Below are positions 4,398 through 20,600 of a stretch of 64,000 bases of DNA, piece after piece (the first letter of the stretch is position 1; the number at the start of each line of letters is the position of its first letter). The notes below the pieces were generated by a model that was given only the letters and a program-made list of their open reading frames with translations, ran no database searches and was not told the origin of the DNA. The stretch covers positions 211,696-275,695 of the forward strand of contig CAWDSS010000010.1 in assembly GCA_963805065.1 (NCBI GenBank). The letters are read 5' to 3'. Origin of the DNA: Candidatus Omnitrophota bacterium (GTDB lineage: Bacteria > Omnitrophota > Gorgyraeia > Gygaellales > Profunditerraquicolaceae). The translations under genes and the position numbers were made by a program.

Positions 4398-5843
4398 TTA
4401 CACAACCTCAGGCCGTAATAATGGAAATAGAATCACATCTCTTATCGAAGGCTGGTCCGTAAGTAACATCACTAATCTATCTATGCCTATGCCAAGGCCT
4501 CCTGCATTAGGCATACCGTGCTCCAATGCCAGGCAATAATCTTCATCAACGTTCTTTTGCTCGTCAGCATCCAGCTCCTTAATCTCCTCTTCGAATCGTT
4601 TTCTCTGTTCAATGGGATTATTTAACTCTGAATATGCATTACCTATTTCCATTCCTGCCATATACAATTCAAACCTTTCAGAGATTAATGGATTCTCCTG
4701 TCTTGTTTTTGCCAAAGGGCACAGATACGTAAAGTAATCAGTAACCAATGTGGGATTTACGCTCATATCCTCTTCTAATATTTCCTCAATTATCTTATTA
4801 ATCTGCGAGCGGGTAAGGCGATCCTTATCCTTAGCAAATCCTTTTGCCTTTAGTTTCTTTAACATTGCCGGCACTTCATCCGATGGCTCAATATTGAATT
4901 TTTCCTTAACCATAGTGGCAAAAGATTTTTGCTGCCAGGGAGGAGTTAAATCAATAAGCTTTCCCTGATAGGTAATTTGCTCTTTACCCAGGACTTCTTT
5001 TGCTACAGAAACAATCAAATCCTGAGAGAGCTTCATCATATCTTCATAATTTGCATAAGCCTGATAAACTTCCAGCATGGTAAATTCCGGGTTATGCCGC
5101 GTAGACACCCCTTCATTCCTGAAACTGCGGTTTATTTCATATACCCTGTCTAAACCTCCTACTAAAAGGCGTTTCAAATACAGTTCGGGCGCAATCCTCA
5201 AGAATAAATCTATGTCATATTCGTTGTGGTGCGTCTTAAAAGGCCGCCCAGCTGCGCCTCCTGCAATAGAATGCATCATGGGAGTCTCAACTTCCAAGAA
5301 ACCTCTCTCTTCGAGGAAATTTCTTATTGCCTTAATGATTTTTGAGCGTATAACAAAGACTTTTCTTACTTCCTCATTGGCAATTAAGTCTAAGTAGCGC
5401 TGGCGGTAACGTATTTCCACGTCTTTTAAGCCATGCCATTTTTCCGGTAAGGGCCTTAATGCTTTGGCAAGCACTGTGAATTCTTCAACTTTAACCGTCG
5501 GTTCGCCTGTATGCGTCTTAAATAATTCGCCTTTAACCGCAATAATATCGGCTATATCCATATCTCTAAGTGTATCAAATTTATCCTGGCCCAGGTAATC
5601 TGCCTTGGCATAAAGCTGAATCCTGGCAGTAACATCCCTTAAATCCAGGAATTCCACTTTACCATGCGTGCGCTTGGCAGTAATCCTTCCGCAAAGGCTG
5701 ACTTTCTGGCCTTCCTGAAAGCTATTTACAACCTCTCCTATAGCCTCACAAGAAGCAGGAATACTGGGGAAAACAGGTATGCCTTTTGCTTTAAGAGACT
5801 CTAATTTAGCCCTTCTTTGCTGGATAATTTCATTGAGTTCCAT
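4398..5843 (-). CDS. lysS: lysyl-tRNA synthetase, class II
   Basis: 481 aa with an OB-fold N-terminal domain and class II core motifs (FLEVETPMM, YEINRSFRNEG, GLGIGIDRLVMLL). Confidence 0.9.
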   Translation of the reverse strand: MELNEIIQQRRAKLESLKAKGIPVFPSIPASCEAIGEVVNSFQEGQKVSLCGRITAKRTHGKVEFLDLRDVTARIQLYAKADYLGQDKFDTLRDMDIADIIAVKGELFKTHTGEPTVKVEEFTVLAKALRPLPEKWHGLKDVEIRYRQRYLDLIANEEVRKVFVIRSKIIKAIRNFLEERGFLEVETPMMHSIAGGAAGRPFKTHHNEYDIDLFLRIAPELYLKRLLVGGLDRVYEINRSFRNEGVSTRHNPEFTMLEVYQAYANYEDMMKLSQDLIVSVAKEVLGKEQITYQGKLIDLTPPWQQKSFATMVKEKFNIEPSDEVPAMLKKLKAKGFAKDKDRLTRSQINKIIEEILEEDMSVNPTLVTDYFTYLCPLAKTRQENPLISERFELYMAGMEIGNAYSELNNPIEQRKRFEEEIKELDADEQKNVDEDYCLALEHGMPNAGGLGIGIDRLVMLLTDQPSIRDVILFPLLRPEVV

Positions 5844-7870: not shown

Positions 7871-9157
7871 CTATTTTGCCTTTTCTAATTCCTCTATTCT
7901 TTTCTCTAACTTTTCAATCTGTTTCTGCTGTTGTTTGACTGCCTCAACCAAAGGCGCTATGAGGTTGCCGTATTTAACTGACTTTAGCCCTGTGTTTTTA
8001 TTTGTGACTACCAATTCGGGAAAAACTTTTTCTACTTCCTGGGCTGTTAGCCCGAGCTCTACCTCATTGTTTTTTCTCCATCTAAAATTAACGCCGTGCA
8101 GCTTAGTAACTTTATTAAGCGCATCGGGGATATCCCTGACATCTTTCTTTAAACTTGCGTCTGAATTATAAATAAAAGCATCGGCATACACGTATCCATC
8201 AAAATGGCCGTGTCCTTGAACATCCAAGGTATATGCCGGACTTGTTGTCCCAATACCGACATTGCCTGGTTGTGTTATAGTTAATAGTTTGTTTGACCAT
8301 AATTGACTTGTAATGTAAAAATTACTAGGGCCAAGATCATTTCCAACTCCTACAACAAATGACTGAAGTGGATCATTATTAATTCTGTATACAGTATTAG
8401 CACGACCACCAGTAGCAATCAAGTAATGTCCTGCCTGAGGGCCAACAGTACTAAAATCCGAACAATGAGTAAAAGGTGGACAAGTCCCAAGGATAGTTAA
8501 CGCTTCTGGTTGTATCATCCCAACTGTCCATGTCGGTGGCGTCCCCATTCCCATGCTAATATTGCTATTGGCATAATCTATTGTCATTAGCGGAGTTGTA
8601 CTATTATTTCCAGCACTTGTACTTGGTCCTCTAAAATAATGTTTACCAGAATCATAGTATATTGTATTTACAATCGAGCTTCCATTACCATCTTTGCCGT
8701 TTTGTCCGTATAATACTACATCTGATGTAACAGCGTCTATGGCTGCTATATCATTAAATGTCGCACTGCCAGTATTGGGATTAATGAGCAACCTTCTATC
8801 AGTTCCCACCTGCAGTAAACCTAGAGGACTAGCCGTTCCAATACCGACTGGATTTTCTACAACTAGAGACGCAGTACCGGGATCAGTCCCACCAGAACAA
8901 GCGCCCGAAGCTGCCCAGCAGACAGTTGAATTATTAACGTAGTTTGGTCCTATTGCTACGCGTACTGACCTTAATTCGTTATAATTTCCGTATGGAGAAG
9001 GATAGTAGGTGGTAATGGTGAGGCTTTCGTTTCCCTGGGCAAAGGCATTAAAGCTCAAAGCGCAAAGCGCAAAGAGCAAGACTGCGGAAATAATAATAAA
9101 GTTTTTAGTTTTGAGTTGCAGTTTTACGTTTTGCATTTTACGTTTTGAGTTTTTCAT
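7871..9157 (-). CDS. secreted tail-fibre-like protein with a C-terminal intramolecular chaperone (peptidase S74-type) domain
   Basis: Signal-like N-terminus. C-terminus SDASLKKDV...LHGVNFRWRK...GLTAQEVEKVFPELV...VKYGNLIAPLVEAVKQQQKQIEKLEKRIEELE matches the auto-processing chaperone domain of phage tail spikes and fibres. Confidence 0.65.
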   Translation of the reverse strand: MKNSKRKMQNVKLQLKTKNFIIISAVLLFALCALSFNAFAQGNESLTITTYYPSPYGNYNELRSVRVAIGPNYVNNSTVCWAASGACSGGTDPGTASLVVENPVGIGTASPLGLLQVGTDRRLLINPNTGSATFNDIAAIDAVTSDVVLYGQNGKDGNGSSIVNTIYYDSGKHYFRGPSTSAGNNSTTPLMTIDYANSNISMGMGTPPTWTVGMIQPEALTILGTCPPFTHCSDFSTVGPQAGHYLIATGGRANTVYRINNDPLQSFVVGVGNDLGPSNFYITSQLWSNKLLTITQPGNVGIGTTSPAYTLDVQGHGHFDGYVYADAFIYNSDASLKKDVRDIPDALNKVTKLHGVNFRWRKNNEVELGLTAQEVEKVFPELVVTNKNTGLKSVKYGNLIAPLVEAVKQQQKQIEKLEKRIEELEKAK

Positions 9158-10155: not shown

Positions 10156-10182
10156 ATTAACGATTAACCATTAACTATTAAC
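10156..10182. repeat. four tandem heptamers ATTAACN (GTTAATN on the coding strand) just upstream of the htpX RBS
   Basis: cATTAACgATTAACcATTAACtATTAACt read directly. Confidence 0.8.
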
Positions 10183-10604
10183 TACTTCACTATCTCCGCC
10201 TTAATTATAAGCCTTATGACGGGGTTGTCAAGGTTATCTGTATTAACATAGATAAATTTCTTTACTGCTCCGGCATAGCCTTTGGAATTAAATTTAACCT
10301 CTATATTAGTGCTTTCTCCTGGCTTAAGGCTATTTTTTTTAACTGCGGATGTAGTGCAACCGCATGTTGTGGTTACGTTTTTTATATTCAAGATCTTTGA
10401 GGATTCATTCTTGAATGCAAATGTATGCGCCAAGACCTCTCCTTGTTTTGCCTTGCCGAAATCCCAGGTGTATTTTTTATCTTCCTGTGTTTGGGGTGCC
10501 TTCGGCATTGGTGCGCTTGCCATCGGATCTGCATTTACCTTTACGAAACAGGATATTGCAAATAAAAAACTTAAGCCCGCCAAAATAAGACATATTTTTT
10601 TCAT
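10182..10604 (-). CDS. DUF1573 domain protein (secreted or lipoprotein-like)
   Basis: Hallmark NVTTTCGCTTSAV...KPGESTNIEVKF. Start placed at MKKICLILAG, which follows AAGGAGG. Confidence 0.7.
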   Translation of the reverse strand: MKKICLILAGLSFLFAISCFVKVNADPMASAPMPKAPQTQEDKKYTWDFGKAKQGEVLAHTFAFKNESSKILNIKNVTTTCGCTTSAVKKNSLKPGESTNIEVKFNSKGYAGAVKKFIYVNTDNLDNPVIRLIIKAEIVK

Positions 10605-10683
10605 CGCTATTTCCTCCTTTTCTAGATAATATACACCTGTCAATGCAAAAATTCAAGACTATTATACTATCCCCTATCTTTTA

Positions 10684-11215
10684 ATGAATCTGCTGATTTT
10701 CTCGTCAAGCGGTTTTTTGCGGGTCCTGCCGAGGCACGTTCTTCGCGTCATCGCTCGCAATTCCCCAGCGTGGAATTGCTTCGCTCAAGCGGAAGCCTTC
10801 GCTCTTGGATACTTGTCTAACGAGGCAAACCATGCCCGCTTCGGCTTCCTTATGTGCCGCTCGTAACATGCCTCGTCACCCGCAAAAAATCCATTTCGAT
10901 GCTCGAAAATCCGTCAGGTTCATTCTCCGAGCGCCTTGTATATTAGCGGGTGACTTGGCTGCACCTTGCCTTAAAGGATAGGCAAGTGCGTCCTTCTGGA
11001 CTGATTTCCGAGCAGGGCATGGAGGCAAGGAGCGGGCAAGGTTCCCGCATCCGGCTCCTTAATTAAAAAAAAGGATTTATATACGGCCCGGATGCGGGAG
11101 AGCGACGCAGCCGACCTGAGCGAAGTTTTGCCACGCTGGGGCAAAACGAGCGTCCCTGCGAGGAAACAGCCAAGTCAGGCCCCGCGTAAAGTAGGGCGCG
11201 AGAGAAACTAATGGA
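10684..11215. other. GC-rich, hairpin-dense non-coding island (candidate structured RNA or foreign palindromic element)
   Basis: Visibly GC-richer than the flanks, with no credible ORF. Nested long-range complementarities: 10683-10704/10904-10924, 10713-10736/10869-10889, 10951-10961/11167-11177. Local hairpins: 10757-10779, 11044-11098, 11125-11147. Confidence 0.4.
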
Positions 11216-11222
11216 CTTATTG

Positions 11223-12038
11223 CTATGGGTGGTGGTCGAGGTGCTGATGAGGATGGACATGCACCTGGCCTTTGTGCCTGTGGCTATGAATGTGGATAAG
11301 GTTGTTATCACGCAGGAATTGCTCGTCTTGAAGGAGCGCCTGAGGGCTGCCGGTCCTGATAATTTTCTTTTCACGCCCCAATACGTAAACTGTATCCGAT
11401 ATTTCTTCTATGATATACAGGTCATGCGTCGCGGTAATTATAGTTCTTCCGTCGAGATTTGCCTGAACGATGATATCCACGACCTGCCTTACTGTAGCCG
11501 GATCCAATCCTGCCGTAGGCTCATCAAGAATCAGGACGTCCGGATCTATTACTAAGACTGAGGCGATGGAAACTTTACGCTTCTCCCCTACGCTCAATTG
11601 ATGCGGAGATCTATCTAGTAAATCTTTGATGTTTAAAATTTCAGCGAGTTTTTCCAGGCGCTTTTTGATTTCTGCTTTCTTGACTCCCAGTTGTAATGGC
11701 CCAAAAACAATATCCTCTTCTACAGTAGGGCAAAATAGCTGGACATCGGGATTCTGAAACACAAACCCCACCATGCTTCTAAATTTTCTGGAAAAATCCA
11801 CATCGTTAAATATCCCTTCCTTTAATTCCCGGCCAAACGCCAAGACGATACCTTTATCAGGAAATATTAGCCCGTCCAACATCTGTAAAAGCGTAGACTT
11901 ACCTGAACCATTAGCTCCCAATATTGCGATCTTGCTTCCTTTTTCAATGCTTATAGTGACACCGCCCAGTGCCAGAAATTTTCCCAGGTAAGAAAACCAC
12001 ACATCTTTTAACTCAAAAATTAAATTATCCATTTGCAA
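11223..12038 (-). CDS. cbiO: ECF/Cbi-type cobalt or nickel transporter ATPase CbiO with a His-rich C-terminal tail
   Basis: Walker A GANGSGKST, signature LSVGEKRKVSIASVL, Walker B LILDEPTAGLD. Tail HIHSHRHKGQVHVHPHQHLDHHP. Confidence 0.8.
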   Translation of the reverse strand: MQMDNLIFELKDVWFSYLGKFLALGGVTISIEKGSKIAILGANGSGKSTLLQMLDGLIFPDKGIVLAFGRELKEGIFNDVDFSRKFRSMVGFVFQNPDVQLFCPTVEEDIVFGPLQLGVKKAEIKKRLEKLAEILNIKDLLDRSPHQLSVGEKRKVSIASVLVIDPDVLILDEPTAGLDPATVRQVVDIIVQANLDGRTIITATHDLYIIEEISDTVYVLGREKKIIRTGSPQALLQDEQFLRDNNLIHIHSHRHKGQVHVHPHQHLDHHP

Positions 12039-20221: not shown

Positions 20222-20269
20222 ATCTTCTACAATTCCCACTCATTTAAGTTTTGCTCTTTATAACTCAAT

Positions 20270-20600
20270 TCCCCCTTAGCTCAGTTGGTAGAGCGAGTGG
20301 CTGTGCGAGGCCAAAGGCCGAAAAGCGCAGCTCCCGCGGGAAACCGCGGCTGAAACTGCAGGAGAATTGCTGGAAGCCCATAGAAAAATATGGGTAATCA
20401 GCAGCCGAGCCTCGCAGAAAGCGAAGCACCAAACCATCCGATAGGTTTGGGTGCCTAACGCAGAAAACGAGGAAGGTTCAGAGACTATGCACCTGCTGCC
20501 TAAAGGGAAACCTATGGTAAAGATATAGTCCACTTCCGAAAGTAATTTCGGGTCAAGTGTAACCACCAGGTCCGAGGTTCGAGTCCTCGAGGGGGAGCCA
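20270..20600 (+). tRNA. tRNA-Asn(GUU) interrupted in the anticodon loop by a group I intron
   Basis: Exon 1 is 20270-20304: TCCCCCT TA GCTC AGTTGGTA GAGC G AGTGG CTGT. Exon 2 is 20560-20600: TAA CCACC AGGTC CGAGG TTCGAGT CCTCG AGGGGGA G CCA. Joined, they give a 76-nt cloverleaf with loop CTGTTAA, U1-A72, G73 and an encoded CCA. Confidence 0.8.
20305..20559 (+). ncRNA. group I intron (IC3-like, tRNA-intron type), 255 nt, no ORF
   Basis: P1 is GCUGU|GC pairing with GCGCAGC, with U.G at the splice site. P2 is CCGCGG-GAAA-CCGCGG, P7 is GACUAU/AUAGUC, J8/7 is AAGAUAUAGUC, P8 is CCUAAAGG-GAAA-CCUAUGG. The terminal nucleotide is G. The core string CAGAGACUAUGCACCUGCUGCCUAAAGGGAAACCUAUGG resembles known bacterial tRNA introns. 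Confidence 0.8.

Follow-up and report, generated by a model that had tools for sequence, protein, structure and literature searches.

The question raised by this locus is what kind of sequence fills the 617-bp gap (10606-11222) between cbiO and the DUF1573 gene in a stretch of 64,000 nucleotides from a Candidatus Omnitrophota bacterium, which at its whole length is referred to here as the window. The island in this gap had been described in a sequence-only reading as conspicuously GC-rich, free of open reading frames (ORFs) and composed of two rod-like hairpin modules, and that reading proposed either an RNA with kissing loops or two diverged inverted copies of one structured element. The reading that we favour, and to which we give an even chance, is that the island is a mosaic of two inverted copies of a semi-mobile structured RNA element of 3' untranslated regions (3'-UTRs) and intergenic DNA, which occurs mainly in Candidatus Omnitrophota.

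The composition and the folding of the island agreed with the earlier description. Positions 10701-11200 are the 500 nt of highest GC content in the window, at 0.56 compared with 0.39 for the whole, and the fold of the island has z-scores of -9.4 on the + strand and -8.7 on the - strand, none of 100 dinucleotide shuffles folding as well. All the stems that had been listed are present, namely 10683-10704/10904-10924, 10713-10736/10869-10889 and TGACTTGGCTG/CAGCCAAGTCA at 10951-10961/11167-11177, and so are both 8-bp hairpins (10757-10779 and 11125-11147) with their exactly complementary loops. The absence of ORFs does not hold literally, since mechanical ORFs of 50-103 aa run across the island, but no frame is conserved open across the members of the element family described below.

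In a local alignment module 1 scored 81 against the reverse complement of module 2, while shuffled sequences gave 24.8 +/- 4.2 with a maximum of 39. Since the score lies far above those of the shuffles, the two modules are diverged inverted copies of one unit; we call them units A and B. They are roughly 70% identical, and the size of the element is 165-245 nt. The complementary hairpin loops and the inverted flanks follow from the inversion, because the same CCAGCGU loop is read on opposite strands. The P3 stems that carry this loop differ between A and B at five of the eight pairs, and each change is compensated. Unit B was also found by a covariance model that had been built without it (103.4 bits, E about 5e-23). 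Thus the second proposal of the earlier reading, the two diverged inverted copies, was borne out both by the alignment and by the covariance match. The units and their helices are as follows:

10717-10885, + strand: unit A, a complete A-type copy, antisense to the flanking genes (covariance model R1, 174.7 bits).
10713-10740/10865-10889, 10745-10750/10855-10860 and 10791-10797/10843-10849, + strand: helices P1, P2 and P4 of unit A.
10757-10779, + strand: P3 hairpin of unit A, GCAATTCC-CCAGCGT-GGAATTGC.
10944-11187, - strand: unit B, a complete B-type copy with two insertions, co-oriented with cbiO and the DUF1573 gene; it starts 35 nt past the cbiO stop codon.
10946-10961/11167-11186, - strand: P1, the closing stem of unit B.
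11125-11147, - strand: P3 hairpin of unit B, GTTTTGCC-CCAGCGT-GGCAAAAC.
11043-11099, - strand: extended P5 hairpin of unit B, with 12-bp arms (11043-11054/11088-11099) and an AT-rich tip; the same extension is present at locus L002.
10961-10989, - strand: optional P6 hairpin of unit B, GCACTTGCC...GGCAAGGTGC, the core of an insertion of ~43 nt.

The P6 insertion was found in L003 and in an internally deleted copy of relative L049 as well. At all three places (window 10944-10999, - strand; L003 7713-7770, - strand; L049 2330-2380) it is flanked by a 5-nt direct repeat, CAGTC/CAGYC, and with this repeat it looks like a small insertion that duplicated its target. Taken as a whole, the island has its energy minimum in a single long rod in which unit A pairs with unit B, and the advantage of this rod over the two modules folded apart is only 19-30 kcal/mol. 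Since the inverted unit A stands beside unit B, any read-through transcript could form a super-hairpin of ~530 nt.

The individual minimum-energy folds of most family members agree. The closing stem P1 (19-24 bp) leads over an internal loop, UUUCUC/UCAAAAU, to P2 (6 bp) and to a three-way junction, one arm of which is the 8-bp P3 hairpin with its invariant CCAGCGU loop; the other arm is P4-P5, whose internal loops contain the invariant GUCGCUC and ACCNUGCCCGCU. The junctions, rich in CGCUC, are invariant. P5 is variable, and some copies (unit B, L003, one of those in L049) have P6 as an insertion ahead of P1's 3' strand. Among the 13 aligned members the P3 loop and the two pairs closing it are invariant, while five of the eight stem pairs covary; two further copies, one in L049 and one in L054, have a slightly deviant P3. 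Model R1 was built from nine compact members, and it scored the members outside the seed at 103 (unit B), 106 (L002), 127 (L003), 82 (L009) and 175.5 bits (L049). In the model-fitted alignment 94.3% of 541 cells were standard pairs and 29 of the 43 pairs were changed on both sides, values of pairing and covariation that none of 500 shuffles reached. When the partners were slid by 1-3 columns, 29-49% of the cells paired and the covariation score fell from 0.507 to no more than 0.109. R1 does not include P4, because the register of this helix differs between the two subtypes; the five different sequences of P4 all pair. The element is thus a real, conserved folded structure, and its interior is under structural selection. 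A pseudoknot between loop and flank (AGCGU with ACGCU) was considered and rejected by steric reasoning, the linker being missing on one side.

The family comprises 14 distinct members, in Omnitrophota- and Planctomycetes-labelled metagenome-assembled genomes (MAGs) and in metagenomes. An exact pattern of 20 specified bases common to both hairpin regions, CCCCAGCGTGG-N5-CTTCGCTCA, was scanned against 596 Gb of sequence, one genome per species, and matched at eight loci, one per genome, all with Omnitrophota or Planctomycetes-group labels; by our own estimate roughly one would be expected by chance. Six of the eight loci are full members, aligning over 165-210 nt, one (L008) is a partial match and one (L005) is unconfirmed. 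A relaxed pattern applied to metagenomes gave five more true members, amid many chance matches in GC-rich coding DNA, and two further members came from syntenic relatives. Within the window no further copy was detected outside the island by blastn, covariance model or motif search. With Rfam 15 at its gathering thresholds no match was obtained in the island, the families tested including the cobalamin riboswitch, RNase P, tmRNA, 6S, the signal recognition particle RNA, GOLLD, ROOL, HEARO, OLE, raiA and the self-cleaving ribozymes. At E values up to 10 only two sub-threshold chance matches appeared (20 bits against 59 and 14 against 50), and Rfam found nothing on the homologous loci. The covariance search was as empty as the inspection by eye, in which no likeness to RNase P, tmRNA, 6S, signal recognition particle RNA and others had been recognised. 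With blastn the island matched nothing in collections of phages and plasmids, and three pattern scans of viral contigs gave chance matches only, none upheld by the covariance model. A literature search on non-coding RNAs or repeat elements of Omnitrophota returned nothing relevant. We thus found no description of the family in Rfam 15 or in the searchable literature, and we regard it as uncatalogued.

All copies are intergenic. At nine loci P1 starts 4-81 nt past the stop codon of a co-oriented upstream gene, for example 4 nt after leuS in L007 and 9 nt after an xerC-like gene in L009. Some 12-14 copies run in the direction of their neighbours, and two, unit A and the L054 copy, run against it. 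The genes downstream are unrelated (DUF1573, purD, aldehyde dehydrogenase, rpmB, kdtA, comEA-like and others), and their promoter-like sites, where found, follow the element, as in the window (10656-10628), L002 (TTGACA-16-TAAAAT), L048 and L049. Since these promoters lie after the element, it is not a leader or riboswitch; this candidate was rejected, the downstream genes being unrelated as well. In the window the surrounding features are:

11223-12038, - strand: cbiO (energy-coupling factor/ATP-binding cassette ATPase), the last gene of cbiM-N-Q-O, the transcription unit upstream of unit B.
10628-10656, - strand: promoter-like site TTGAAT-17-TATATT of the DUF1573-htpX operon, downstream of the island and homologous to the L049 promoter region.
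10182-10605, - strand: DUF1573 gene, next after the island in the downstream direction, with its ATG at 10605 and GGAGG before it.

A motif of 20-25 nt, here motif M, with the consensus AATGAAYCTG-N5-TTTTCGAGCG, is associated with the element. It is present three times at the island:

10683-10706, + strand: direct copy, AATGAATCTGCTGATTTTCTCGTC, forming the outer stem P0 with 10904-10924.
10904-10924, - strand: inverted copy, AATGAACCTGACGGATTTTC.
11198-11222, - strand: degenerate copy, CAATAAGTCCATTAGTTTCTCTCGCG, upstream of unit B and aligned to the motif of unit A.

Motif M was also found in L004, L006, L027, L028, L048, L049 and L054. As terminal inverted repeats it bounds unit A and a second GC-rich element of 215-235 bp, el-2; at many other copies of the main element the motif is one-sided or absent. 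Examples of el-2 are:

L004, 6245-6479: el-2.
L048, 422-645: el-2.
L049, 8088-8302: el-2.
L028, 3306-3536: el-2, here alone.

Elsewhere el-2 often stands directly downstream of the main element. Some of its internal stems show compensatory changes, and it has no Rfam match. Its similarity to unit A is limited to the bounding motifs, and the idea of el-2 being the main element in a diverged and inverted form was rejected, since 14 of 15 comparisons with the core gave z of at most 3 (one gave 5.0). Motif M as a sigma-54 promoter or one of the extracytoplasmic function type was also rejected, by eye, on the varying spacing and -10 position. Unit A and el-2 have no coding capacity, measure 215-260 bp and have deletion derivatives. 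Another shared GC-rich module, CAGAAAGC-GGACACCC followed by a hairpin and then GGGGTGCCT, lies upstream of two copies (L049 2196-2280 and L028 1-73), and it hints at further mosaic building blocks.

Close relatives of the window show gain, loss and rearrangement of the copies. In L049, whose HtpX is 94% identical, the synteny from cbiMNQO to DUF1573-htpX is kept. Its gap after cbiO has 662 bp and holds motif M, a sense A-type unit (175.5 bits), a B-type 3' remnant, el-2 with inverted M motifs on both ends, and a promoter region like that of the window (L049 8264-8356 aligns with window 10718-10624). The A unit of L049 is 87% identical to unit A of the window, but has the opposite orientation with respect to the flanking genes and stands at a different position, next to cbiO. 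A second L049 copy, between the polyprenyl synthase and UbiA genes, has its core replaced by a short hairpin and retains P1 and P6, while the corresponding intergenic region of the window is much shorter and without a copy. Thus 21 kb of L049 contain 3-4 element pieces at two loci, against two units at one locus in the 64 kb of the window. L054 (88%) has an antisense B-type copy followed by an inverted M motif and a promoter, which is the layout of unit A in the window. No copy was found in the 21 kb examined of L055 (84%), where the region upstream of an ORF of ~390 aa is a different gene neighbourhood without cbiO; in the P0014 contig (HtpX 84% identical) cbiO abuts the next ORF and leaves no space for an island.

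The ORF just mentioned (388-399 aa) lies directly upstream of the DUF1573 gene in all four relatives (L049, L054, L055 and the P0014 contig) and not in the window. It has no Pfam match and is membrane-protein-like. The DUF1573 gene of the window now adjoins the homologous promoter region (window 10606-10660 versus L049 8304-9528). An intact gene between cbiO and the DUF1573 gene in related genomes, which the sequence-only reading had named as a sign of a decayed gene, does therefore occur, but it stands beside the element. Since in L049 gene and element are side by side and the island holds no remnant of the gene, the island is not a decayed gene.

A Logan contig of the same strain, L001, ends in the invariant hairpin loop of unit A (window 10772), inside an 11-mer common to both hairpins; as far as it reaches, its orientation is that of the window at the promoter-proximal junction. 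The short-read contigs L001, L050 and L054, from the same or close strains, all end inside elements, each at position 1, which suggests repeats, population variants or coverage loss at the hairpins.

In the reading that we favour the element would form the 3' end of the transcript of the upstream operon (in the window, unit B at the end of the cbiMNQO transcript), and its RNA would adopt a fold of great stability that is specifically recognised and lies ahead of the promoter belonging to the following gene. At this place it would most likely mark or protect the 3' end of the upstream transcript, or be released as a stable 3'-UTR-derived RNA; we put forward this 3'-end role, in any of its forms (protection, marking or a released RNA), only tentatively and consider it rather doubtful. 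At the level of DNA the family behaves as semi-mobile and recombining: copies come and go, change orientation, lose internal parts and are joined to motif M and el-2. The semi-mobility could come about by recombination or by an unknown mobilising function. Through this history the window has an A-type copy, with motif M inverted at its two ends, lying antisense beside a B-type copy.

Several observations weigh against this reading. A simple stabiliser of 3' ends would not need an invariant loop and invariant junctions, so the core points to a specific partner, and no gene is common to the neighbourhoods of the different loci. The transcription of the element and its functional strand are both inferred. 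Orientation and the closeness to stop codons favour the strand co-oriented with the genes, while in 14 of 14 members it is the reverse strand whose fold is more stable, by about 9 kcal/mol. G-rich strands, however, always fold better. The reverse strand also has purine-rich junctions, the type usual in functional RNAs, and the loops of the proposed sense strand are rich in C and U; the counts of G-U versus A-C in the helices, 6 versus 7, are neutral. Finally, the alignment from which the structure was counted had been fitted to the model and leans towards structure.

A rival possibility is that the element acts at the level of DNA only, as a mobile element resembling transposable elements of the miniature inverted-repeat type (MITEs), repetitive extragenic palindromes (REPs) or palindrome-associated transposable elements. 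Its hairpins, in single-stranded or cruciform DNA, would then be what a transposase or HUH nuclease acts on, and the loop would be the cleavage or recognition site. Presence, absence and rearrangement between close relatives, the internally deleted derivative that keeps its ends, the inverted motif pairs around unit A and el-2 and the contig breaks inside elements all fit such an element; the orientation bias could follow the replication strand, as in IS200/IS605, and an invariant loop on a variable stem recalls the nick sites of HUH enzymes. However, no target-site duplication was found at any motif boundary, the flanks of the motif pairs lacking a common direct repeat (window, L004, L048, L049 and L027), no transposase lies in the 5 kb that flank the island on each side, and no neighbouring ORF is common to the other loci. 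MITE-like nature is thus upheld in part, by the terminal inverted repeats, the small size and missing coding capacity of unit A and el-2, the presence/absence pattern and the deletion derivative, and not by the duplication and the transposase that would go with it; the motif that is one-sided or absent at many copies and the structural selection on the interior also set the element apart from MITEs. There is, moreover, only one locus in 64 kb and the exact 20-mer occurs once per genome, the copies sit tightly behind stop codons, and the four to five nested helices that covary round invariant junctions go far beyond what a transposase end needs. We consider this explanation unlikely. A switch by inversion, in which 10683-10924 or the segment between the copies flips and alters the expression of DUF1573-htpX, would account for the 20-22 nt inverted repeats on both sides of unit A, whose motif other genomes conserve too, for unit A's different orientation towards the flanking genes in the window and in L049, for the recurrence in L054 of an antisense copy with inverted motif and promoter, and for the Logan contig that ends within the 11-mer of the two hairpins. 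But the A copy of L049 has also been relocated next to cbiO, which is not a simple flip, the 5 kb to the left and to the right of the island hold no recombinase gene, the Logan contig has the orientation of the window at the promoter-proximal junction, and the covarying fold is left unexplained by inversion; hence an inverton seems very improbable to us. It is also conceivable that Omnitrophota have a self-propagating or RNA-guided system of a new kind and that the element is its RNA, a compact three-way junction with invariant hairpin loop and junctions, either catalytic (a new self-cleaving or ligating ribozyme) or a guide or scaffold for an unlinked protein. The mobility, the inversion and the mosaics would then stem from that activity rather than from a classical transposase; we regard this as improbable.

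If instead the two units were convergent, separately transcribed paralogous small-RNA genes of a trans-acting, housekeeping or regulatory class specific to Omnitrophota (A on the + strand, B on the - strand), core conservation of riboswitch or ribozyme grade, a single pattern match per genome across several species and neighbouring genes that are not conserved would all be expected. By eye, A-T-rich hexamers like a -10 element stand 5-9 nt before P1 at several loci, a promoter-like site on the + strand lies just upstream of unit A (10637-10665), and a hairpin with a T-run follows the element in L007 and L002. Such promoter and terminator matches occur at chance frequency, however, and in L007, L009 and L023, where P1 begins 4-9 nt past the stop codon, there is no room for an intergenic promoter. 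The orthologous site is empty in L055 and in the P0014 contig, a deleted copy exists, and P1 is flanked by a U-run on the 5' side and an A-run on the 3' side without a terminator tail, so that we think independent small-RNA genes an unlikely explanation, below a purely DNA-borne element. The kissing-loop architecture, one ornate RNA of ~530 nt with docked modules, had been suggested by the exact complementarity of the loops on one strand, and a z of about -9 for the island is in accord with it. This complementarity is a by-product of the inversion, and in all other genomes found the unit is single, the second element, if there is one, being the unrelated el-2. Since single units are found elsewhere, loop-loop complementarity is not a conserved feature; the single-unit homologues contradict the kissing-loop proposal, and we give it hardly any weight. 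Decay of the ~390-aa membrane-protein gene, the last explanation, starts from the ORF of 388-399 aa that all four relatives examined possess and the window lacks. Tblastn of the L049 protein gave no match in 10606-11222 (the best in the window, E 0.97, lies elsewhere), L049 holds the element and the intact gene side by side and no frame is open across the family members, so that this origin is next to impossible.

The structured 3'-UTR/intergenic element that we favour can be compared with known intergenic repeats, namely the enterobacterial repetitive intergenic consensus or intergenic repeat unit (ERIC/IRU), the bacterial interspersed mosaic elements (BIMEs, which are REP mosaics), the pneumococcal BOX and the Correia elements of Neisseria. 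Like these, it is intergenic, apparently co-transcribed and near operon ends, it contains imperfect palindromes with strong hairpin potential, and it is present or absent between close relatives. It is likewise a modular mosaic with longer and internally deleted variants (the optional P5 and P6, the core-deleted copy and the combinations with motif M and el-2, whose order and orientation vary). Unlike them, it has a core with a three-way junction, invariant loops and compensatory changes in five helices, and no sequence relation to any of them. It seems to have few copies (a single locus in 64 kb, one exact-pattern match per genome), it is much more GC-rich than the host genome, and it belongs to an uncultivated phylum. 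With the orphan RNA motifs of Rfam (raiA, ROOL, GOLLD and HEARO/omega-RNA; Weinberg et al.) it shares a covarying multi-helix fold with invariant junctions, an unassigned function and the occurrence in intergenic DNA of metagenomic lineages. It differs from these motifs in having no Rfam 15 match even at E = 1-10 and in its unit of 165-245 nt, smaller than the "large ornate" classes; in contrast to HEARO/IscB, no protein gene is associated with it. Small RNAs derived from 3'-UTRs and 3'-end stem-loops also start a few nt past a stop codon, co-oriented with the upstream gene and before the next promoter, but those are locus-specific, whereas here one fold is attached to unrelated genes (leuS, xerC, cbiO and others).

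Around the island of the window ten ORFs were considered: CbiMNQO, DoxX, an oxidoreductase, DUF1573, HtpX, a Peptidase_S74 protein and one without a Pfam match. An exact look-up of CbiO with two alternative start codons returned no record. No cobalamin riboswitch was detected in the whole window or upstream of cbiM in L049, despite the cobalt-transporter operon cbiMNQO. The protein after htpX (7871-9157, - strand, 428 aa) carries a C-terminal Peptidase_S74 domain, an intramolecular chaperone of the phage tail-spike/endosialidase type, and since L049 has conserved this protein, it does not readily pass for a piece of a prophage. At 20264-20600 (+ strand) a tRNA gene is split in the anticodon loop by a group I intron (RF00028, 20295-20552, 76.9 bits). 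The exons, read by eye, give the anticodon loop CU-UGU-AA and probably a tRNA-Thr(UGU), which ARAGORN does not call. L002, another Omnitrophota MAG, has a group I intron in its 23S rRNA gene (4882-5088, - strand, 74.5 bits) and its element copy about 1.9 kb downstream of the 5S rRNA gene.

The element joins two traits that are usually apart, the genomics of an intergenic repeat and a conserved core like that of a riboswitch or ribozyme, in an uncultivated phylum of very small cells. At a practical level the analysis provides a seed alignment and a model for a new RNA family and accounts for assembly breaks at such sites. If the element acts as DNA, it would define a mobile element of a new, non-autonomous kind that is recognised by way of a complex fold; acting as RNA, it would imply an as yet unknown conserved binding partner or activity.

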